This document shows, one piece after another, positions 4,509 through 54,538 of a stretch of 64,000 nucleotides of DNA. Made by a program: the position numbers and the translations under genes. The DNA comes from Betaproteobacteria bacterium (GTDB lineage: Bacteria; Pseudomonadota; Gammaproteobacteria; Burkholderiales; SG8-39). The first letter of the stretch is position 1; each line of letters begins with the position of its first letter. Below the pieces are notes generated by a model. It was not told the DNA's origin, did no database searches, and was given only the letters and a program-made list of their open reading frames with translations. The DNA lies in contig JACPYS010000028.1 of NCBI GenBank assembly GCA_016195915.1, forward strand, positions 132,542 through 196,541, in the 5' to 3' direction.

Positions 4509-5626
4509 AGCGCAGCGGCGAACAGTTGCTCGAAGTCCTGCCTGGCGCAAGGTCGTGGATTGGTCTGGTGGCAGATGTCCTTCAGCGCAATATCGACCAG
4601 GCGCGGCAGGTGCCCGGCGTTCACGTCAAGCTCGGAGAGTTTCGCCGGAATGCCGAGTTCGGCCTTCAGCCGTGTGAGCCATTCGATGAAATCCGGCACG
4701 CCGGCCACGCGCGCAAGCTCGTCCATCTTCGTCGCCGCCGCGCTGCGGTTGAAGCGCATCACGTGGTCGATCATCACGCCGTTGGCGAGGCCGTGGTGCA
4801 GGTCATTGACGGTCGAGAGCGCGTGGGCGCAGGAGTGCACGGCGCCGAGGTCTTTCTGGAACGCGATCGCACCCATCATGGAGGCCATCAGCATGTCGCT
4901 GCGCGCGGCGAGATCCCTGCCGTCGGCGAACGCCCGCGGCAGCGCGCGGGCGGCGATCCTCACGCCTTCGAGCGCGATGCCGTCGCACAGCGGGTGGTAA
5001 GCGGGTGAAAGATAGGACTCGACGTTGTGCGTGAGCGCGTCCATCCCGGTCGCGGCGGTGATGCCGCGCGGCAGATCCAGGGTGAGTTCCGGATCTGCGA
5101 ACACCGCTTTCGCGAGCAGCGCGGGAGAGAACACGATGCGCTTGACATGCGTGTCGTCCTCGGAGATCACGCTCGAGCGGCCGACTTCGCTGCCGGTGCC
5201 GGCGGTGGTGGGAAGCGCGACGAAGTGCGGCAGCGGCCTGTCGATCGGACGCACCTGCGGATGATCCCAGGCGTATTCGAGCACGTTGCCAGGGTGCACC
5301 GCCATCAACGCAACCGCTTTAGCCACGTCGAGCGCTGCGCCACCGCCGAAGCCGATCACGCAGTCGGCGCGGTGCGCGCGATACGCTGCGACACCCGCGT
5401 CCACCTGGCTCTTCACCGGGTTGCCGTGTACGCCTGCGTAGACCTCGGGCGCGAGTTCGGCGAGGCGCGACTCGAACTCCGCGAGCATCGGCAGCGCGGC
5501 GATGCCGCTGTCGGTGACGATGATCGGTCGCCGCAGGCAGTGCGCCTGAAGTTCCTGGGCGACGAGCTTGCGCGAGCCGGGGCCGAAGTGAATCGTGGTG
5601 GGAAACGCGAAACGATGGATCGTCAT
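4505..5626 (-). CDS. Iron-containing (group III) alcohol dehydrogenase
   Basis: Fe-ADH family similarity (GFGGGAALDVAKA, metal-binding His region HSCAHAL..HHGLANG). Start at MTIHRF is likely, but 5644 is possible. Confidence 0.88.
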   Translation of the reverse strand: MTIHRFAFPTTIHFGPGSRKLVAQELQAHCLRRPIIVTDSGIAALPMLAEFESRLAELAPEVYAGVHGNPVKSQVDAGVAAYRAHRADCVIGFGGGAALDVAKAVALMAVHPGNVLEYAWDHPQVRPIDRPLPHFVALPTTAGTGSEVGRSSVISEDDTHVKRIVFSPALLAKAVFADPELTLDLPRGITAATGMDALTHNVESYLSPAYHPLCDGIALEGVRIAARALPRAFADGRDLAARSDMLMASMMGAIAFQKDLGAVHSCAHALSTVNDLHHGLANGVMIDHVMRFNRSAAATKMDELARVAGVPDFIEWLTRLKAELGIPAKLSELDVNAGHLPRLVDIALKDICHQTNPRPCARQDFEQLFAAAL

Positions 5627-5657
5627 GTCAGGGCAGGATTTCAATCCGTTGCCCCGC

Positions 5658-5916
5658 TCAGAGCCGGTAAGGCACCCGGATACCAGGCTCGTCCGCGGCG
5701 AAATCCTTGGCGTTGCGCGTGATCAGGACAAGGTTCTGGACTCGCGCCGTCGCAAGGATGATCGCGTCGGGCACGCGCATCTTCGCGGCGCGCCGCAGCG
5801 CCACCGCCCGCTCCGCGATCTCCCCGGTGAGCTCGAGTCGCTCGAAACTCGCGAGAAACTTTCTCGACGCCATTCAGGTAGTCGATGAGGATGTTCGTAT
5901 CGAACACCGCCCTCAC
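5658..5916 (-). pseudogene. vapC: PIN-domain VapC toxin remnant (internal deletion plus frameshift)
   Basis: A GTG at 5916 overlaps the antitoxin stop and gives VRAVFDTNILIDYLNGVEK in one frame. The C-terminal FLASFERLELTGEIAERAVALRR..PDAIILATA..ITRNAKDF..IRVPYRL is in another frame (ORF 5658-5873). The total length of 259 nt is not a multiple of 3. About 35-40 central residues expected from homologues are missing. Confidence 0.7.
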
Positions 5917-6137
5917 CGCTTCCACTCCTTGCGCAGGCGGCGCTGGAGGGCGACCCCATCGATGCGGAGCCCTGCGCGCCTCCAAAGACCAAACGCCTCA
6001 TCTCTGCACGGAAGGTGCTCCTGCAGATATCGCTCGACCGCCTGGCGGATCAACTCCGCGCGCGAGAGCTTCCGGCTGCGCGAGATGCGCTCGAGCGCGT
6101 CGAGTTGACGAACGGGCAGATCAATTATGGTCCGCAT
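5913..6137 (-). CDS. vapB: Ribbon-helix-helix (CopG/VapB-like) antitoxin
   Basis: MRTIIDLPVRQLDALERISRSRKLSRAELIRQAVERYL is a typical RHH N-terminus. It lies immediately upstream of the vapC remnant and overlaps it. Confidence 0.75.
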   Translation of the reverse strand: MRTIIDLPVRQLDALERISRSRKLSRAELIRQAVERYLQEHLPCRDEAFGLWRRAGLRIDGVALQRRLRKEWKR

Positions 6138-6188
6138 GGGCGGCATGTCGAATGAAGGCATTACATGATATCAAGGCACACTTCCTGG

Positions 6189-7559
<1,371 letters not shown>

Positions 7560-42558: not shown

Positions 42559-42798
42559 ATGACACGCACAACGATTTCCCTGCCCGACGGACTGGCGCTC
42601 ATGCTCGCCCGCGAAGCGAAACGCCTCGACGCGTCGGTTTCCGAGGTCGTGCGTCAGGCGATCACCCGGCACCTGGGCGTCGGCGACTCCGGCCAGGGGC
42701 CCGGCTTCATCGCCATCGGCCGCAGCGGCAAGCGCCGCACCGCTCGCAACGCGGAGGCCATCCTTGCGCGGGAATGGCGCGGTGCTCGCCGTCGTTGA
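42559..42798 (+). CDS. vapB: Ribbon-helix-helix (CopG/VapB-like) antitoxin
   Basis: MTRTTISLPDGLALMLAREAKRLDASVSEVVRQAITRHL. Confidence 0.78.
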   Translation: MTRTTISLPDGLALMLAREAKRLDASVSEVVRQAITRHLGVGDSGQGPGFIAIGRSGKRRTARNAEAILAREWRGARRR

Positions 42799-43198
42799 CA
42801 CCGGTCCGCTGTACGCCGCCGCCGACGCGGACGACGACGACCATGCCGCCTGCGCCGCCGCGCTGCGCAGCAAGGACTACCGGATCGTCATTCCGGCACT
42901 GGTCGTCGCGGAAACGACCTATTTGATCGGCACCCGGCTCGGCGCTCGCGCCGAGGTGAGATTTCTCGAATCGCTCGCTGCGCTCGATGTGGAGGCGCCC
43001 GCCGCGTCGGACTGGGCGCGCATCGCTGAACTGGCGGAGCGCTACCGGAATTTCCCGCTTGGCGGAGTGGACGCGTCCGTCGTGGCACTTGCCGAACGGC
43101 TCGGCATCGACATCGTCGTCACCTTGGATCGAAGACACTTTGGCGCAATTCGACCAAAGCATTGCCGAGCGTTCCAACTGCTGCCTGAAGTTCAATAA
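42764..43198 (+). CDS. vapC: PIN-domain toxin VapC (apparently intact)
   Basis: VVDTGPLYAAAD, VVAETTYL, GGVDASVVALAE and TLDRRHF give four PIN acidic positions. Start is TTG 42764 or GTG 42782; it overlaps vapB. Confidence 0.8.
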   Translation: MRGNGAVLAVVDTGPLYAAADADDDDHAACAAALRSKDYRIVIPALVVAETTYLIGTRLGARAEVRFLESLAALDVEAPAASDWARIAELAERYRNFPLGGVDASVVALAERLGIDIVVTLDRRHFGAIRPKHCRAFQLLPEVQ

Positions 43199-47280: not shown

Positions 47281-47407
47281 CAAGGGTAAGGTGGGTAAAC
47301 ATCTCCATCGCTAAGCACGGTGACGTCAAGGGTTCCACGGGTCACCGGCCGTCCATGCGGACTCTGCAGCTGCGCTACACTAGGGCCCAAAGAATAGGGG
47401 AGCCGGA

Positions 47408-49243
47408 ATGCCGGAGCTGTTCTTCAAGGGAAAAGAGTACGTCTATAACCATCACCTCACGGTCCCCTACCGCCCGCTCATCGCCGATCCGGAGAAGTCC
47501 ATCGGCCCCGCCGACCTGGCGGGCAATCTCATCATCCACGGCGACAACCTGCATGCGCTGAAAAGTCTGCTGCCGCGCTACGCCGGCAAGGTCGATCTGA
47601 TTTTCATCGACCCGCCGTACAACACCGGCAACGAAAGCTGGTCCTACAACGACAACGTCAACTCGCCCATCATGCGCGAGTGGCTGAGGTCCAATCCCGT
47701 CAACGTCGAAGACATGCTGCGGCACGACAAGTGGCTGTGCATGATGTGGCCGCGGCTGACGCTGTTGCGCGAGTTGCTGTCGGACCGCGGAAGTCTATGG
47801 ATAACATTGGACGACAACGAAGTGCATCGGGCGCGCAGCGTGATCGATGAAATATTTGGTGCCGAGGCGTTTATTGCGTCTGTGATTTGGCAGAAGAATT
47901 TTTCTCCCAAAAATACCGCACAGTTTTTCTCCGAAGATCACGACTATGTACTTGTCGTTGCCAAGAACCGGGATCTCTGGCGTCCAAATCTGCTTGAGCG
48001 AACTGCTCGGATGGAGGCGAGATATTCCAATCCCGACAATGATTCACGTGGCGCCTGGACTTCTGGTGACCTATCTGCGCGAAATTACTACAGCGAAGGA
48101 ATTTATTCGGTCACGTGTCCGGGCGGACGGGTAATCGATGGGCCTCCGCCAGGAACGTTCTGGCGCGTCTCGAAAAAGAAATTCGATGCGCTTGATCGTG
48201 ACAAGAGAATCTGGTGGGGTGAAGATCAAAATAACATGCCGCGCCTTAAGCGATTCTTAGAGAACGTAAAGCAAGGCCGTGTACCTCAGACTTTGTGGTT
48301 TTACGAAGATGTAGGTCACACGCAAGACGCCAAGAAAACTCTCTTAGAAATTGGGGTGCTGAAATCGCAAGAGGATGCGACGATGACCCCCAAGCCGGTC
48401 GCTTTGATAGAAAAGGTGATTGAGCTTGGAACGCAGCCCGATTCCTTGGTCCTGGACTCATTCGCCGGTTCCGGCACGACAGGTCATGCGGTATTGCGCG
48501 CCAATTCAAATGACAGCGGCTCGCGCCGATTTATTCTCGTCGAAAGCGAAGACTACGCCGACCGTATCACCGCCGAGCGTGTACGTCGCGTGATCAACGG
48601 CTACGCCTACGTCGGCACGCAGCGCGAGGAGCTGCTGCGCGACAAAGTGACCTGGAGCAAGCTGCAGAAGTCGGCCGACCTGCTCGAGCAAGTAGAGGCG
48701 ATCAAACAGCGCGAGGGCTTTTCCGATCGCCCGGACCTGGCGCAGGTGCCGCCGGAGAAGCGGCGCTTCGACAAGGTCAACGTCAAGATGGACGATGGAG
48801 TTTTGCTGGTCGAAGGGGAAAAGAAGATTTCGAAACGCGTCGAGGGATTGGGCGGGGAATTCACTTACTGCACGCTGGGCGAGCCGATCGACGCGGAGAA
48901 AATCCTGTCGGGCGAACAACTGCCGGACTACTCCAGCCTCGCTGCCTGGCTGTTCTATACCGCGACCGGAGCCACGCTGGACAAATCACGAGTGAAGGAG
49001 AAGGAGTTCTTCATCGGCAGGGCGCAGGATCGCCACGTGTGGCTGATCTACAAGCCCGATCTGGTATTCCTGAAATCCCCCGAGGCGGCGCTTACGCTGT
49101 CCTTCGCCAAGGGACTGCGCGCAAAGCACAAGGACCGGCGGCACCTGGTGTTCGCTCCGGCCAAGTACCTCTCCAACAAGCAGTTGCTCGAATTCGGCGT
49201 CGAGTTCGCGCCCTTGCCGTTCGTACTGTACCGGGAGGCTTGA
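47408..49243 (+). CDS. mod: Type III restriction-modification DNA methyltransferase (Mod, beta-class N6A/N4C)
   Basis: Motif IV DPPY (47609-47620) precedes motif I FAGSG (48461-48475), which is the beta-class order. 611 aa. A res-type gene lies downstream. Confidence 0.9.
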   Translation: MPELFFKGKEYVYNHHLTVPYRPLIADPEKSIGPADLAGNLIIHGDNLHALKSLLPRYAGKVDLIFIDPPYNTGNESWSYNDNVNSPIMREWLRSNPVNVEDMLRHDKWLCMMWPRLTLLRELLSDRGSLWITLDDNEVHRARSVIDEIFGAEAFIASVIWQKNFSPKNTAQFFSEDHDYVLVVAKNRDLWRPNLLERTARMEARYSNPDNDSRGAWTSGDLSARNYYSEGIYSVTCPGGRVIDGPPPGTFWRVSKKKFDALDRDKRIWWGEDQNNMPRLKRFLENVKQGRVPQTLWFYEDVGHTQDAKKTLLEIGVLKSQEDATMTPKPVALIEKVIELGTQPDSLVLDSFAGSGTTGHAVLRANSNDSGSRRFILVESEDYADRITAERVRRVINGYAYVGTQREELLRDKVTWSKLQKSADLLEQVEAIKQREGFSDRPDLAQVPPEKRRFDKVNVKMDDGVLLVEGEKKISKRVEGLGGEFTYCTLGEPIDAEKILSGEQLPDYSSLAAWLFYTATGATLDKSRVKEKEFFIGRAQDRHVWLIYKPDLVFLKSPEAALTLSFAKGLRAKHKDRRHLVFAPAKYLSNKQLLEFGVEFAPLPFVLYREA

Positions 49244-49245
49244 TC

Positions 49246-49635
49246 ATGTCGCGTGCACGCTTCGAGTTGGCGCGAACACAGTTTGACCAGGCGCTGGCGC
49301 GCCTCTCCGAAGCACTGCGGGAGAATGAGACGTCGTTCATGCGCGACGCTGTTATTCAGCGCTTCGAGTTCACCTACGAACTGGGCTGGAAGTGCATGTT
49401 CTATTGGCTGCGGGATAACGGAGAAAAGATTCCGGAGATGGTGCGCCCGGTGATTCAGGCGGCGTTCCGTGTGGGGCTGATCGGCGACGTCGATCTCTGG
49501 GAAAAAATCAAGGACTGTCGCGATGAAACCAGCCATACCTACGACGAGGCGAAAGCAATCGAAGTTGCGGCCTTCATAAGGCGCGACGCCGAAAGCGCTT
49601 TCGGGGCGCTCAGAACTAAACTCGGAACCTTGTAA
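49246..49635 (+). CDS. HEPN-domain protein, HI0074 / nucleotidyltransferase substrate-binding family (HepT-like toxin candidate)
   Basis: IQRFEFTYELGWK and the Rx4H motif RDETSH (49519-49536) followed by TYDE. GGGAGG lies 7 nt upstream. The ATG is 2 nt after the mod stop. Confidence 0.85.
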   Translation: MSRARFELARTQFDQALARLSEALRENETSFMRDAVIQRFEFTYELGWKCMFYWLRDNGEKIPEMVRPVIQAAFRVGLIGDVDLWEKIKDCRDETSHTYDEAKAIEVAAFIRRDAESAFGALRTKLGTL

Positions 49636-52589
49636 TGTCGCCGATGGCAGCGAAGAACGACGCGAATCCGTTTGGCATTGCGCCTTATTCTGCCGCGAAG
49701 CTGACACGGTTGTTCGAGTGCTTGCCGGGAATCGATCGAGTCTGGATCTACGGGTCCCGCGCACGCGGCGACCATCGCGAGGAATCGGACATCGATCTCG
49801 CCGTCGAGGCCGCCTCCGAAGAGGCGTACAGCGGCGCGTGGCGCGCAGTGGAAGCGCTGGAACTGGTCTATAGGGTGGATCTGGTTCATCTTCAGCGCGT
49901 GAGCGACACGGGATTTCGCTCGCGCATCGATCAGGACAAGAAGGTATTCTGGGAGCCGCGCAGCTATGCCACCGACGTGGCGGGGCTGGCCGGCACCGAG
50001 TTGAAACAGTTCCAGCGCGAAGTGCTGGCACAACTGGCTCGATACATTGAAGAGCTCGAGAAGCAGCGCGGCCAGGCGGAGAGAGCGGCGGAGGCATTGC
50101 GGGCGGCGGAGGTGGACGCGGACAAGGAGATGCTCGATTTCGCGCGCAAAACCTGGGATGCGATGCGGGAGCGTAAGCAGCTTCCACCGACTTTCGCCGG
50201 CCGGACTTATTCCAGCCGTTTTGACCCTGCGGCGCGGCCCATTCCCAACGTGTGCCTGAAGGTGCCGACGGGCGGGGGCAAGACATTGCTCGCGGCAGCC
50301 GCGGTCGCCCGCATGTTTTCGAGCTATTTCCGCCGCCATACGGGACTGGTTCTCTGGATCGTACCGAACGAGGCCATCTTCAGCCAGACGAAACGCACGC
50401 TGAACGACCGCGACCATCCGTACCGGCAAATGCTCAATGTGGCGGGCGCCGGGCGGGTCAAGATACTGGAAAAGGATTCGCCGCTTTCGCGGGCAGACGT
50501 GGAGTCGCACCTGTGCGTCATGCTCCTGATGCTTCAATCGGCGTCGCGCCAGTCGAAGGAAACGCTGCGCTTCTTCCGCGATCGCGGCAGCGTGCACGGG
50601 TTCTTCCCGCGCGAGGACGACCTCGACGCGCACTACCGGTTGCTGGGCGAAATTCCCAACCTCGACATCTATGGCGCCGATCCGCGTCTGAAAGGCGCGA
50701 TCGTCAAGGATTCACTCGGAAACGTGATGCGCCTGGTGCGCCCCATGGTGATCATCGACGAGGGCCATCATGCCTATACCGAAACGGCGTTGAAGACCAT
50801 CGACGGCTTCAATCCCTCCCTGGTACTGGAGCTGTCTGCGACGCCCCGCGTCGGAAAGAAAGGGGAACATGGCGCGAACATCCTCGTGGACGTTCGCGGC
50901 ACCGACCTGGAACGCGCGGAAATGATCAAGCTCCCGATCAACGTCGAAGCGCGCCCCTGGAACGATTGGCAAAGCTGCCTGAACGCCAGCGTTTCCAAGC
51001 TGGACGAACTAGGGAAAGCAGCGCATCTCCTCGAAGCCGATACCGCGCGCTATATCCGGCCGATCCTGCTGGTGCAAGTCGAGCGAACCGGCGCAGACCA
51101 GCACGACAGCGGGTTCATTCATGCCGACGATGCGCGCAATCATTTGCTGCAATTGGGATTCCACGCGGATGAGATCGCCATCAAGACAGCGGACAGGGAT
51201 GAGCTCAAGCAAGTTGAAAACATCAATTTGCTTTCCCCGGCCAACCGCGTGCGCGCGATCGTGACCAAGCAGGCGCTCTCGGAGGGGTGGGACTGCCCTT
51301 TCGCGTACGTGCTGTGTGCGCTCTCTGCGGGCCGTAATCCCGCGGCATTGACCCAATTGATCGGCCGGATTCTGCGGCAGCCCGATGTCGCGAAAACGGG
51401 CCGCAGTGCGCTCGACGAATGCTACGTGTTTTGTCACGACATCCAGACCGGCGCGGTGGTGACCCTTATCAAGTCGGGACTGGAGCAGGACGGTTTGGGC
51501 GATCTTGCCATCAGCGTCCGCTCCGGCAACGGAGAGGCCCCGAACGCGAATCTGCGCAAAGTGGAGCGCAACCCGAAGTTCGGCAAGCTGCGCATCTTCC
51601 TGCCGCGGGTGACCTGGAACGATGGCGGCATGCGGCGGGAACTCGCTTATGACAGCGATATCCTGGCGAAAGTACCCTGGCAGGCAATGGATGCGGCGGC
51701 GCTGGCAAATGACTGGGCGCCCGACTCGGCACCGGCCGGACAGCAGCGCCTGCGCATCGGGCTTGAGGTATTGGCGGGCGTCAGTCCGATTCTTCCACCT
51801 GATGAGGACAGCATTTCCGCGTCGCTCGACCGGGTTTCGATGGTGCGCGCCGTTCTCGATCTCGTGCCCAATGCATGGATCGTCTGGCAACTGATAGAGA
51901 CGACCGTCAGGCGGCTCCAGAGGATAGGGTTTGCGGAGCAAGCCATAGCGCGCTCATCCAACAGCCTGATCGAACGTCTGAGGAGCGATCTGGAGCGGGA
52001 ACGCGACCGCTTGGCAGAGCAGGTATTTACCGAGTTGGTTGAAGCGGGCAGGGTGGCGTTTTCCCTGCGCGCGGACGCCGCCGACTACGAGTTGCCGTCC
52101 TCGCTCGAAATCAACGTATCCGATTCGCCGCGCAACGCGCAGCGCCCGGACGGCCAGCCTATCGATAAGAGTCTTTTTCAGCCGTGCTTCGAGGCAATAT
52201 TCGACAATCGACTGGAACTCGATGTCGCCTGCTATCTCGACAGCCAGGCGGCGCTCACTTGGTGGCACCGCAACGTTGCCAAAACCCAATACGGCCTGCA
52301 AGGGTGGAAAAGAAACAAGATCTATCCGGACTTCGTTTTCGCGAAAATGGAGGGCGAAGGGATGGCGAAAATCGTGGTGCTGGAGACCAAGGGACTGCAC
52401 CTCAAGAACGAGGATTCGGCCTATAAGAAGGCGTTGCTCGATCGTTTGACTGAAATCTATATGGAAGGCAGCGGCATTCGAGTGGGTGAACTCGCGCTCG
52501 AAGGCACGAGCCGGCAGCAGGTGATTTGCGATCTTGTGTTCGACGATGCATGGCGAGGCGCGATTTCCAGCCGGCATTTTTCGTCATGA
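49635..52589 (+). CDS. res: Fusion protein: minimal nucleotidyltransferase (MNT, HI0073-like) domain plus Type III restriction enzyme Res subunit (SF2 ATPase plus PD-(D/E)xK nuclease)
   Basis: YGSRARGDHREESDIDL (GS..DxD, 49752-49796). Walker A VPTGGGKT (50262-50285). DEGH (50757-50768). LELSATP. SEGWDCPF. QLIGRILRQ. C-terminal YPDF..VVLETKG (52326-52391). A single uninterrupted 984-codon ORF whose ATG overlaps the HEPN TAA. Confidence 0.88.
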   Translation: MSPMAAKNDANPFGIAPYSAAKLTRLFECLPGIDRVWIYGSRARGDHREESDIDLAVEAASEEAYSGAWRAVEALELVYRVDLVHLQRVSDTGFRSRIDQDKKVFWEPRSYATDVAGLAGTELKQFQREVLAQLARYIEELEKQRGQAERAAEALRAAEVDADKEMLDFARKTWDAMRERKQLPPTFAGRTYSSRFDPAARPIPNVCLKVPTGGGKTLLAAAAVARMFSSYFRRHTGLVLWIVPNEAIFSQTKRTLNDRDHPYRQMLNVAGAGRVKILEKDSPLSRADVESHLCVMLLMLQSASRQSKETLRFFRDRGSVHGFFPREDDLDAHYRLLGEIPNLDIYGADPRLKGAIVKDSLGNVMRLVRPMVIIDEGHHAYTETALKTIDGFNPSLVLELSATPRVGKKGEHGANILVDVRGTDLERAEMIKLPINVEARPWNDWQSCLNASVSKLDELGKAAHLLEADTARYIRPILLVQVERTGADQHDSGFIHADDARNHLLQLGFHADEIAIKTADRDELKQVENINLLSPANRVRAIVTKQALSEGWDCPFAYVLCALSAGRNPAALTQLIGRILRQPDVAKTGRSALDECYVFCHDIQTGAVVTLIKSGLEQDGLGDLAISVRSGNGEAPNANLRKVERNPKFGKLRIFLPRVTWNDGGMRRELAYDSDILAKVPWQAMDAAALANDWAPDSAPAGQQRLRIGLEVLAGVSPILPPDEDSISASLDRVSMVRAVLDLVPNAWIVWQLIETTVRRLQRIGFAEQAIARSSNSLIERLRSDLERERDRLAEQVFTELVEAGRVAFSLRADAADYELPSSLEINVSDSPRNAQRPDGQPIDKSLFQPCFEAIFDNRLELDVACYLDSQAALTWWHRNVAKTQYGLQGWKRNKIYPDFVFAKMEGEGMAKIVVLETKGLHLKNEDSAYKKALLDRLTEIYMEGSGIRVGELALEGTSRQQVICDLVFDDAWRGAISSRHFSS

Positions 52590-52803
52590 CTACGGTTGTC
52601 CCGGCGGCCATCCTCGAAGCGATGCAAACGGTAGCGAAATGATACCTTTTAGGCTCGAAGCATCAACTCTTCTTGCCCTGCGCTGTTATGCCACCGTCAC
52701 TTCTTTCGCCAGATACACATCCTGAACCGCATTGAGCAGCGCAACGGGCCGACCCGATCCGACAGCATTTGCTTTCCCATCAACACATCAGTATCGTTGT
52801 GTT

Positions 52804-53244
52804 ATGATTCCTGCGTTCAGTGCCGAAACGGGCAATCTCCCGCCGGGGGAACATCCCGCCACATGGGAAGAAATCGTGGAGCGGTTCGGCTACACCGCGT
52901 GGCGCAGTAAGTTGCTCGACGGGCTGAAGGCCGCCTTGGAGTCCCTGCGCGCAGCGGGTTGTAAGAAGATCTACCTCGATGGAAGCTTTGTTACTGCGCA
53001 GGAGAGGCCCGGCGACTTTGACGCCTGCTGGGTAGGGGAGGGCGTCAACGGCGACCTTCTCGACGAGGAACTCCTCGTATTCGACGGCGGGCGAGCAACG
53101 CAAAAAGAAAAATATGGGGGCGAGTTATTCGTTGCGGAGTGGGCAGCCGATGAGACCGGCACTCCCTTCCGAACGTTCTTCCAGCAAGACCGGGATGGGA
53201 ATCCCAAAGGCATCATCACTATCGACTTGACGGAGCTGCCATGA
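52804..53244 (+). CDS. Small NTase-fold protein (I recall this as DUF6932-like), toxin candidate
   Basis: MIPAFSAETGNLPPGEHPATWEEIVERFG ... YLDGSFVTAQERPGDFDACW has a GS-x9-DxD signature at 52981-53022. Start placed at ATG 52804. Confidence 0.7.
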   Translation: MIPAFSAETGNLPPGEHPATWEEIVERFGYTAWRSKLLDGLKAALESLRAAGCKKIYLDGSFVTAQERPGDFDACWVGEGVNGDLLDEELLVFDGGRATQKEKYGGELFVAEWAADETGTPFRTFFQQDRDGNPKGIITIDLTELP

Positions 53245-53669
53245 TCACTAACGAGCGCCAGTATGCGATTACGAAGGCGCAAGCGGAGCGCTTCAAAGAG
53301 GCGCTCGCGAAGCCCGATGAACAAGGAAAGAAGCTGCACCCTAAGGTACGGAAGGCGATGAGCGAGGGATTACAGAGCCAACTCCAGGACCTGGAAACGG
53401 AAATCGCTGAATTTGAAAAACTGCGCGACGGGAAAGTCACGACCATCGTGGTGAATTCGATCGTTGACATCGCCGTAGCGCTCATTCAGTCGCGTATCGC
53501 GCGCAACTGGACGCAGAAACAACTCGGCGAGAGGCTCAATCTTCCGGAACAGCAAATCCAGCGCTACGAGAGCACTCGCTACAAGGGGGTGGCCGTGGAG
53601 CGTCTCCAGGAAGTGGCCGATGCGCTGAATGTTCGCGTGCAAGAGGTGGTTACAATCGAACAGCGGTAA
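53241..53669 (+). CDS. XRE-family helix-turn-helix protein (HigA-like antitoxin candidate)
   Basis: The C-terminal HTH is IQSRIARNWTQKQLGERLNLPEQQIQRYESTRY. The ATG overlaps the upstream stop (ATGA). Confidence 0.8.
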   Translation: MITNERQYAITKAQAERFKEALAKPDEQGKKLHPKVRKAMSEGLQSQLQDLETEIAEFEKLRDGKVTTIVVNSIVDIAVALIQSRIARNWTQKQLGERLNLPEQQIQRYESTRYKGVAVERLQEVADALNVRVQEVVTIEQR

Positions 53670-53709
53670 ACCTGGGGACTTGAGAGCAGGCGTCAGCGGA
53701 GATTTTCCG

Positions 53710-54538
53710 ATGTCGACCGAGACCACCCGCCGTGTAACGATCGATGACGAATACCGGGCTCGTACGCGAGCTTCGGCGAACCTCTACGCGGAAGCTTGCA
53801 CGGTGATTCCGGCAGGAATCACCCACGACTCGCGCTTCACGCTGCCTTATCCGATCTTCGTATCTCGCGCCGCAGGTCCCCGCAAGTGGGATGTCGACGG
53901 CAACGAGTACGTCGATTACTTCGGCGGCCACGGAGCATTGCTGCTCGGTCATTCGCACCCCGCCGTGGTCGAAGCGGTGCAGCGCCAGGCCGCACTCGGT
54001 ACGCACTGGGGCGCCTCGCACACACTCGAAGTGCGCTGGGCGCAGTTGGTGCAGCGCCTGATCCCCTCGGCTGAGCGGGTTCGCTTCACGGCCTCGGGGA
54101 CCGAAGCATCGCACCTGGCGTTGCGGCTCGCACGTGCGTACACCGGAAAACCGAAGATCCTGCGCTTCGTCGGCCACTTTCACGGCTGGCATGGCGAGGT
54201 CGTCGCGGGCGCGATGTCGCACTTCGATGGCTCGGTGCCCGCCGGCATTGCGCAGTCGCTGCTCGATCAGTCGATCGTGCTGCCGGCCGAAGATATTCCA
54301 CGCATCGACGAAACGCTGCACACGCGCGATGACATCGCCGCGGTCATCTTCGAGCCCTCGGGCGCATCGTGGGGCCAGGTACCGCTGCCGCCCGGCTTCG
54401 GGAGGTCACCAGGCAACAGGGCATGGTGCTGATTTTCGACGAGGTGATCACCGGCTTTCGATGGTCGCGCAGACGCTGGACGCATTTCGCACGGCGGTGA
54501 GAAGGCTGAAATCGGAGGGCGATATCCGGAACGCCTAG
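53710..54538 (+). pseudogene. Class III aminotransferase (glutamate-1-semialdehyde aminomutase-like) remnant
   Basis: The N-terminal 228 aa are intact (DVDGNEYVDYFGGHGALLLGH, FTASGTEA). Homology then continues in a second frame (LREVTRQQGMVLIFDEVITGFRWS) and jumps to the extreme C-terminus in a third frame (AQTLDAFRTAVRRLKSEGDIRNA*). This indicates one frameshift plus loss of roughly 150-200 codons. Confidence 0.75.

Follow-up and report, generated by a model that had tools for sequence, protein, structure and literature searches.

An MNT-family nucleotidyltransferase domain fused to the N-terminus of the Res subunit in a Type III restriction-modification cassette

Results and Discussion

Identification of an MNT domain at the N-terminus of Res

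A Type III restriction-modification (R-M) cassette was analysed in a 64,000-nucleotide (nt) stretch of a Betaproteobacteria bacterium (contig JACPYS010000028.1, positions 132,542 to 196,541 of the forward strand), which is referred to as the window and supplies all coordinates without a locus number. Its restriction subunit Res carries a minimal pol-beta nucleotidyltransferase (MNT) domain at the N-terminus and is encoded directly downstream of a HEPN gene. This fusion, proposed in an initial annotation made from the sequence, is confirmed; it is a new arrangement built from known kinds of protein, and it has a single origin within the Res family. The res gene (49635..52589, + strand) is an unbroken open reading frame (ORF) of 984 amino acids (aa) in the ORF listing.

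Pfam, conservation, structure prediction and Foldseek place the MNT domain at Res residues 1-108 (49635..49958, + strand), with its core at about residues 10-108. Residues 39-55 (nt 49749-49799) read YGSRARGDHREESDIDL. The predicted catalytic residues on the + strand are G40-S41 (49752-49757), D52-x-D54 (49788-49796), and D82 (49878-49880), the last of which lies within RVDLVHL (residues 80-86). Both the GS...DxD signature and RVDLVHL were found where the initial annotation had located them, and the profile and fold matches are far beyond what a chance motif would give. Pfam Polbeta (PF18765) matched residues 22-106 with an E-value of 1.2e-12 (48.2 bits against a cutoff of 26.9), and NTP_transf_2 matched the Res N-terminus as well (E 6.5e-8). 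In the alignment with the HI0073/MntA families that the same annotation had suggested, G40, S41, D52, and D54 were kept in 119 of 119 fused homologues and the third aspartate, D82, in 110 of them.

An AlphaFold2 (AF2) model of Res residues 1-133, built from a 19-sequence alignment, had a predicted local distance difference test score (pLDDT) of 85 and displayed alpha1, beta1 (carrying GS), beta2 (DxD), an alpha helix, beta3 (D82), a further alpha helix, and beta4. This is the alpha-beta-alpha-beta topology of nucleotidyltransferases (NTases), followed by low-confidence residues 107-124 and by a helix from residue 125. Over residues 10-109, pLDDT was 82-93 both in this model and in that of full-length Res (pLDDT 63, predicted template modelling score 0.38), where confidence is otherwise limited to the first helix of the Res core. 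The top Foldseek match of the MNT model in the PDB was the Legionella MNT antitoxin 8xeo (E 1.7e-8, template modelling score 0.88, root-mean-square deviation 1.5 Å), and the runners-up were 8xeh_E from the Legionella HEPN-MNT complex, 7bxo (S. oneidensis MntA), and HI0073 (1no5). Strand beta4 (residues 103-106) is predicted to run straight into a low-confidence linker, and in this respect the model resembles the Legionella MNT, which lacks helix alpha4. Sequence and fold matches alike point to HI0073, S. oneidensis MntA, and the Legionella MNT. Judged by profile comparison, the Res N-terminus is an MNT-family domain that falls short of a certified MntA equivalog, and it is a minimal pol-beta nucleotidyltransferase with an intact conserved catalytic set.

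Conservation and single origin of the fusion

A homologue search over 5.8 billion proteins returned 5692 relatives, of which the best 120 clusters were inspected. Polbeta and ResIII were annotated together in 119 of these clusters (57-100% identity, about 980-1020 aa). The sole exception, P0037, has a miscalled start: its contig holds the MNT domain intact and in frame, with a HEPN gene upstream, and once this start is mended all of the best 120 clusters are fused. The same frame was recovered in independent assemblies from NCBI, JGI, ENA, and Logan. Public annotations describe the fused proteins as 'DEAD/DEAH box helicase family protein' or 'type III restriction enzyme'.

GTDB was also scanned with one genome per species, and the best 80 loci were kept and mapped by phmmer with the Mod, HEPN, MNT, and Res core sequences of the window. 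Fourteen loci (L001-L013 and L028) were fused, all with the order Mod, HEPN, and MNT-Res, and in 14 of 14 the MNT and Res parts lay in a single ORF, in agreement with the continuous frame reported for the window. These loci came mostly from Burkholderiales, with others from Dechloromonas, Rhodanobacteraceae, and Spectribacter. The remaining 66 loci, from many phyla, were unfused, with Mod adjoining Res; phmmer detected neither the window HEPN nor the window MNT in them, and two carried HEPN/MNT pairs of other types. Every one of the 14 fused loci has the HEPN gene, as do L081 and L082-L085. The fused form was absent from the PLSDB plasmids and IMG/VR viral contigs searched, where only unfused relatives were found.

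In a neighbour-joining (NJ) tree of Res cores (79 sequences, 837 columns), the 15 fused proteins formed one clade in 100 of 100 bootstraps, indicating that the fusion arose once within the Res family and was kept through divergence to about 55-60% identity. Setting the 14 extended loci beside the 66 without the extension thereby answered, for this Res family, the question of the initial annotation whether the fusion arose once or repeatedly.

Two other readings of the N-terminal segment were rejected. A generic Res N-terminal domain was ruled out, because the 66 relatives without MNT start at the equivalent of residue 121; moreover, the fused proteins form a single clade and the acidic residues are kept. 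Two separate genes or an artefact were ruled out by the fusion in 120 of 120 clusters, the 14 of 14 one-ORF loci, and the start miscall in P0037. It is barely credible that the domain is an inactive relic, and the companion idea of an assembly or annotation artefact is refuted. The annotation of P0037 without an MNT domain and an NCBIfam MntA score below threshold could be read in that direction, but the P0037 locus does have an in-frame MNT, and both the invariance of the four GS/DxD residues and the recurrence of one frame in four assembly collections speak against it.

Some irregular relatives were observed as well. In L003 (3547-6571), which belongs to the fused group, HEPN and MNT-Res are intact, but mod carries an insertion and is split into several ORFs; in the unfused L069 (3564-9572), interruptions affect mod as well as res. 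Either decay of these systems or errors of long-read sequencing could account for this. P0173, a predicted protein of 217 aa, joins an MNT domain (residues 4-90) directly to the last ~130 Res residues, without the helicase; its Res part is 62% identical to residues 852-983 of the window Res, and either a deletion or faulty assembly may have given rise to it.

The Res core and the junction

The Res core (49998..52589, + strand) comprises a superfamily 2 (SF2) helicase and a C-terminal PD-ExK nuclease, as recognized by Pfam ResIII, PADLOC REase_III, and motifs. Past the N-terminus, Pfam detected ResIII (E 5e-14), DEAD, and Helicase_C. The PADLOC profile REase_III (883 positions) matched residues 122-977 with an E-value of 1e-199, and since the profile starts at residue 122, the family core excludes the first ~120 residues. 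The initial annotation had let a Res-type ATPase begin at about residue 115; the assignment as a Res-type ATPase stands, and its start is to be moved, as both REase_III and the starts of the unfused proteins put the beginning of homology at residues 121/122. Helicase motifs I (PTGGGKT, residues 211-217), II (DEGHH, 375-379), and VI (QLIGRILRQ, 574-582), together with the nuclease motif P898-D899 ... E917-T-K919, are invariant in the homologues, which indicates a complete restriction subunit rather than a degenerate one.

Between the two parts lies a linker of residues 109-121 (49959..49997, + strand), delimited by pLDDT and spacing, which ends at T121, the site that the start methionine occupied in the ancestral Res. 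Its pLDDT is below 50 for residues 110-120. Unfused relatives start with MELK(D/E)(F/Y)Q, which aligns with T121-E-L-K-Q-F-Q of the window protein. Among the 120 fused proteins, position 121 is occupied by T (51), V (40), I (17), L (6), or M (5); the ancestral methionine is kept in just five of 120, so an internal start is not conserved. In 112 of 120 homologues, a spacing of 17 residues separates W106 and K124, and EPRR and G119 are conserved. As read from these alignments, this is the junction pattern expected if an upstream MNT gene lost its stop codon and translation read through a short spacer into res.

The HEPN partner

The neighbouring HEPN gene (49246..49635, + strand), which the initial annotation had named, encodes a protein of 129 aa that was assigned to the HI0074/NTase_sub_bind family by Pfam, TIGR01987, and PDB matches and is predicted to be an RNase toxin. 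Pfam PF08780 (NTase_sub_bind) matched with an E-value of 2e-27 (96 bits against a cutoff of 31.8) and TIGR01987 (HI0074) with 86.5 bits against a cutoff of 55.8, while the PDB matches were TTHA0048 (1e-17), HI0074 (8e-12), and the Legionella HEPN toxin 8xdj (4e-11). The motif RDETSHTY (R92-x4-H97-x-Y99; 49519..49542, + strand) contains the predicted AMPylation site, Y99, and R92, H97, and Y99 are invariant in 15 of 15 HEPN proteins of fused loci. According to a previous study, Y105 of the Legionella HEPN, the equivalent of Y99, is AMPylated (PMC11586414). By analogy with these proteins, we infer that the window HEPN is an RNase toxin.

The name of the family, NTase_sub_bind, reflects an older idea, according to which the HEPN protein would bind the substrate for the NTase, a role seen in kanamycin nucleotidyltransferase and enzymes of the GlnE type, and the NTase would act not on HEPN but, for example, on Res, Mod, or DNA ends, or on a nucleotide signal. 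Where HEPN domains are joined to NTases within multidomain enzymes, their role is indeed regulatory (PMC3710099), and pol-beta NTases of defence systems make nucleotide products, with a weak HalB match in the window. However, HEPN domains that serve only for binding typically lose the RNase motif (PMC3710099), whereas Rx4HxY is invariant here; the nearest sequence and fold matches of both partners are bona fide type VII toxin-antitoxin (TA) proteins, and among free relatives the closest consist of just a HEPN and an MNT gene. We therefore regard a target other than HEPN as improbable.

Parallel fusions of MNT to HsdS

P0177 has an MNT of the same subfamily fused N-terminally to HsdS (Methylase_S), the specificity subunit of Type I systems. 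This MNT-HsdS architecture occurred in 16 of the 120 best relatives of P0177 (counted as clusters), and GS...DxD was kept in 16 of 16. Together with MNT-Res, it implies that the antitoxin was fused to R-M subunits at least twice. At L088 (5555-7470) and L089 (3598-5560), the gene order is HsdM, NTase_sub_bind HEPN, and MNT-HsdS, followed further on by HsdR. L090 (3333-5602) holds HsdM, a complete free MNT, a HepT-like gene, and MNT-HsdS. At L086 (4586-7527), RhuM lies upstream of MNT-HsdS without a HEPN gene, and at L091 (3275-5488) a NYN-domain gene stands upstream of MNT-HsdS in the place of HEPN.

Source of the module and the mod-res gap

A search with the MNT domain alone, covering 1.84 billion representative proteins, gave 1219 hits, and many of the short top hits were fragments running on into Res. 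The closest complete free MNT was P0121 (117 aa, 61% identical), which lies behind an NTase_sub_bind HEPN gene, overlaps it by 4 nt, and does not belong to an R-M operon; P0169 and P0176 have the same HEPN-then-MNT arrangement. Such a free HEPN-then-MNT pair is likely the precursor state of the fusion. The usual order of these modules is MNT first according to Anantharaman et al. (PMC3710099), and the subfamily of the window is reversed, with HEPN first. In this order it is MNT, not HEPN, that adjoins the downstream gene and fuses to it.

In some unfused relatives, the gap between mod and res is filled with other small modules. L018 (gap 5548-6788) has a PF05168-type HEPN, then a free MNT, plus a GIY-YIG gene; L032 (203-1177) has MNT and then HEPN; L015 (6390-6991) has DUF433 and DUF5615 (PIN-like); L031 (6413-6990) has a PemK/MazF-like pair; and L066 (6475-6995) has HicA/HicB. 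Further inserts, including DUF4160/DUF2442-like, DUF559, and DUF3800 genes, were found across L023, L050, L022, L070, and L076. In this Type III family, the mod-res gap seems to act as a hot spot where TA-like genes insert.

The filled gaps support an origin of the fusion by TA insertion, and they are at the same time the basis of the main alternative, a selfish TA module that hitch-hikes in the operon and was fused neutrally. In that case, MNT would still neutralise HEPN, and its attachment to Res would be a tolerated stop-loss accident with no cross-talk to restriction and no role in defence. Apart from the variety of modules in the gap, structure prediction gives a flexible linker and an MNT domain that folds alone, and HEPN and MNT have mean distances of 0.50 and 0.52 against 0.35 and 0.38 for Mod and Res, the faster evolution expected of a semi-autonomous module. 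On the other hand, the fusion has been kept across the whole clade with zero reversions in 120 clusters, the length of the linker is near-invariant, and the independent HsdS fusion of the same MNT subfamily with HEPN upstream suggests a favoured arrangement, although none of these three points is decisive. A neutral accident of this kind seems to us unlikely, though it deserves to be taken seriously.

Proposed mechanism

In type VII systems, according to two previous studies, MNT (oligo)AMPylates a tyrosine beside the Rx4H motif of HEPN and blocks its RNase (PMC7641770, PMC11586414). The Legionella MNT, without helix alpha4, associates as a monomer with the HEPN tetramer, in which it AMPylates the tyrosine of RX4HXY, Y105 (PMC11586414), and a monomeric MNT of this form is compatible with tethering to another protein. 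Against this background, we consider it probable that a Legionella-like type VII (HEPN/MNT) TA module was captured between mod and res, and that its antitoxin became the N-terminal domain of Res, where it would AMPylate Tyr99 of HEPN and tie the antidote to Res.

In such a course of events, a TA module would have entered between mod and res of a Type III R-M operon, and mnt, its stop codon gone, would then have been joined to Res at the N-terminus. By analogy with S. oneidensis HepT/MntA, the A. flos-aquae system, and L. pneumophila HEPN-MNT, from which this step is drawn, the Res-borne MNT would use ATP to (oligo)AMPylate HEPN Tyr99, and the RNase would stay off. The supply of antidote would be tied to Res both genetically and physically, with one MNT per Res and with shared synthesis, turnover, and location. 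The initial annotation had likewise proposed that the fusion fixes a 1:1 stoichiometry, and that the conformational or ATPase state of Res could gate the activity of MNT; both ideas are reasonable. When Res synthesis or integrity fails, the latent RNase could serve as a backup that aborts the infection, or could penalise the loss of res. We think, from the likeness to these systems, that the Res-borne domain is probably the working antitoxin of the upstream HEPN, and the tether may provide a PrrC-like backup, protect res through addiction, or add nothing to what an unattached MNT would do.

Several points weigh against this proposal. AMPylation, the toxicity of HEPN, and an influence of Res on MNT are all attributed to the window proteins from the behaviour of relatives. 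The Res N-terminus scored 48.2 bits with the NCBIfam equivalog MntA_antitoxin, below its cutoff of 60. The Q and E of IQxFEFT, which are the Mg-site residues proposed to be catalytic in the Legionella HEPN, vary in 4 of 15 members of the HEPN family. The distance matrices of HEPN and MNT showed no significant correlation (r 0.20, p 0.16; 11 loci), although the star-like phylogeny makes this comparison uninformative. The HEPN gene is missing at two of the five examined MNT-HsdS loci, L086 and L091, and so a fused MNT can persist without a HEPN partner. Many unrelated TA modules sit in the mod-res gap of unfused relatives, and hitch-hiking with a tolerated fusion would explain the layout equally well. 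Finally, AMPylation is covalent, and it is hard to see how toxin that is already modified would be quickly reactivated upon the loss of Res.

A further possibility is that the sole antidote was built into Res as part of a guard circuit, in which the removal, blocking, or diversion of Res would leave freshly made HEPN un-AMPylated, and the RNase would abort the infection; the MNT-HsdS fusions would then be the same solution reached twice. Candidate triggers could be phage anti-restriction proteins, proteolysis, host shut-off, or Res that is locked on DNA or consuming ATP. We hold a circuit of this kind to be rather doubtful; if it were true, the fusion of an antitoxin to an immune effector subunit would be a general coupling of immunity to suicide or dormancy.

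Cassette layout and genomic setting

The first gene of the cassette is mod (47408..49243, + strand), which encodes a Type III DNA methyltransferase of 611 aa with DPPY at residue 68 and FAGSG at residue 352, and which was matched by Pfam N6_N4_Mtase (E 3e-37) and PADLOC MTase_III (E 8e-196). The ATG of the HEPN gene lies 2 nt past the mod stop and is preceded by the Shine-Dalgarno sequence GGGAGG, and its TAA stop overlaps the ATG of res (TAATG). The Type III order of Mod and Res therefore holds in the window only with the HEPN gene interposed.

The guanine-plus-cytosine (GC) fraction is 0.53-0.60 over mod, the HEPN gene, the 3' end of res, and a downstream DUF6932/HTH gene pair, against 0.63-0.68 in the flanks (window ~47300-53800). 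This drop is in keeping with horizontal acquisition of an island of about 6.4 kb, whose neighbours are genes for a 2-hydroxyacid dehydrogenase and an aminotransferase. The flanks of the cassette differ among close relatives, and the varied flanks and lower GC are consistent with a mobile unit. A promoter/terminator scan and a repeat search revealed no flanking repeats, promoters, or terminators above chance around the island, and tRNA and Rfam scans found no tRNA or Rfam element in the window.

Directly 3' of res, a gene at 52732-53244 (+ strand) encodes a DUF6932 protein (Pfam E 3e-40; PADLOC candidate PDC-M63A), in which DGSFVTAQERPGDFD resembles the GS-x10-DxD NTase signature; a PDB sequence search gave no match for this protein. 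It overlaps by 4 nt a gene of HTH_3/Xre type (53241-53669, + strand), and the pair is TA-like. The pair is missing at the loci of the 86%-identical P0002 cassette, which places it outside the R-M/TA unit. About 4 kb upstream of the cassette lies a VapBC-like TA module, consisting of a ribbon-helix-helix (CopG-type) gene (42559-42798) and a PIN-domain gene (42764-43198) on the + strand.

Comparison with known systems and significance

The window holds the same two protein families as the type VII HEPN/MNT systems L. pneumophila lpg2920/lpg2921, S. oneidensis HepT/MntA, that of A. flos-aquae, and H. influenzae HI0073/HI0074. It shares with them the GS/DxD/D residues of MNT, the RX4HXY motif of HEPN including the tyrosine that is AMPylated there, and the gene overlap seen in free modules. 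Unlike these systems, in which the antitoxin is a free protein of 100-140 aa, the window has it fused to an 863-aa Res core within an R-M operon. The cassette likewise resembles Type III R-M systems of the EcoP15I/EcoP1I type in its operon of Mod then Res, its SF2 helicase with PD-ExK, and its full-length PADLOC matches, but it adds a HEPN gene between mod and res and an N-terminal enzymatic domain on Res; EcoP15I Res itself (4zcf) gave a marginal sequence match (E 0.002).

Reports from 2012-2013 already covered HEPN genes in R-M operons, as well as fusions of HEPN domains to nucleases or helicases, with PrrC/EcoprrI as the paradigm (Anantharaman et al. 2013, PMC3710099; Makarova et al. 2012/2013). 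The window and PrrC-EcoprrI have in common a HEPN RNase inside an R-M operon and the proposed logic of a latent RNase that is held in check by R-M as a second line. However, PrrC is a fusion of an ABC-ATPase with HEPN that is silenced by binding the Type Ic enzyme, whereas in the window the toxin is free and the antitoxin is fused to Res. The window HEPN, a single domain of 129 aa, is not a PrrC-type member, and the logic alone may be analogous.

Two other proteins have MNT joined covalently to a partner. FhepTA (PMC13000451) is a single-chain MNT-HEPN, but the partner there is the toxin, not an R-M subunit. The PDB entries 9z7q, 9z7v, and 9z7x contain a chain of 438 aa called 'Cmr1-MntA', in which, by its molecule name, MntA is joined to Cmr1 of a type III CRISPR system. 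Its match to the window MNT is weak (E 0.045), a literature search found no paper on it, and, judged by name, it is a possible conceptual parallel to MNT-Res. In the literature library searched, there was likewise no published description of MNT fused to Res or HsdS.

The coupling of R-M and other immune loci to suicide or dormancy toxins was proposed from comparative genomics a decade ago, with PrrC as the sole worked example, and the same work remarked that antitoxins seem to be missing from immune loci. In the cassette described here, the antitoxin would be present after all, hidden inside the restriction subunit. The mod-res hot spot for TA genes and the HsdS fusions suggest a route from a hitch-hiking TA module to an integrated component of defence, and the compact three-gene cassette, found across a conserved clade, allows a direct test of the coupling between immunity and toxin.

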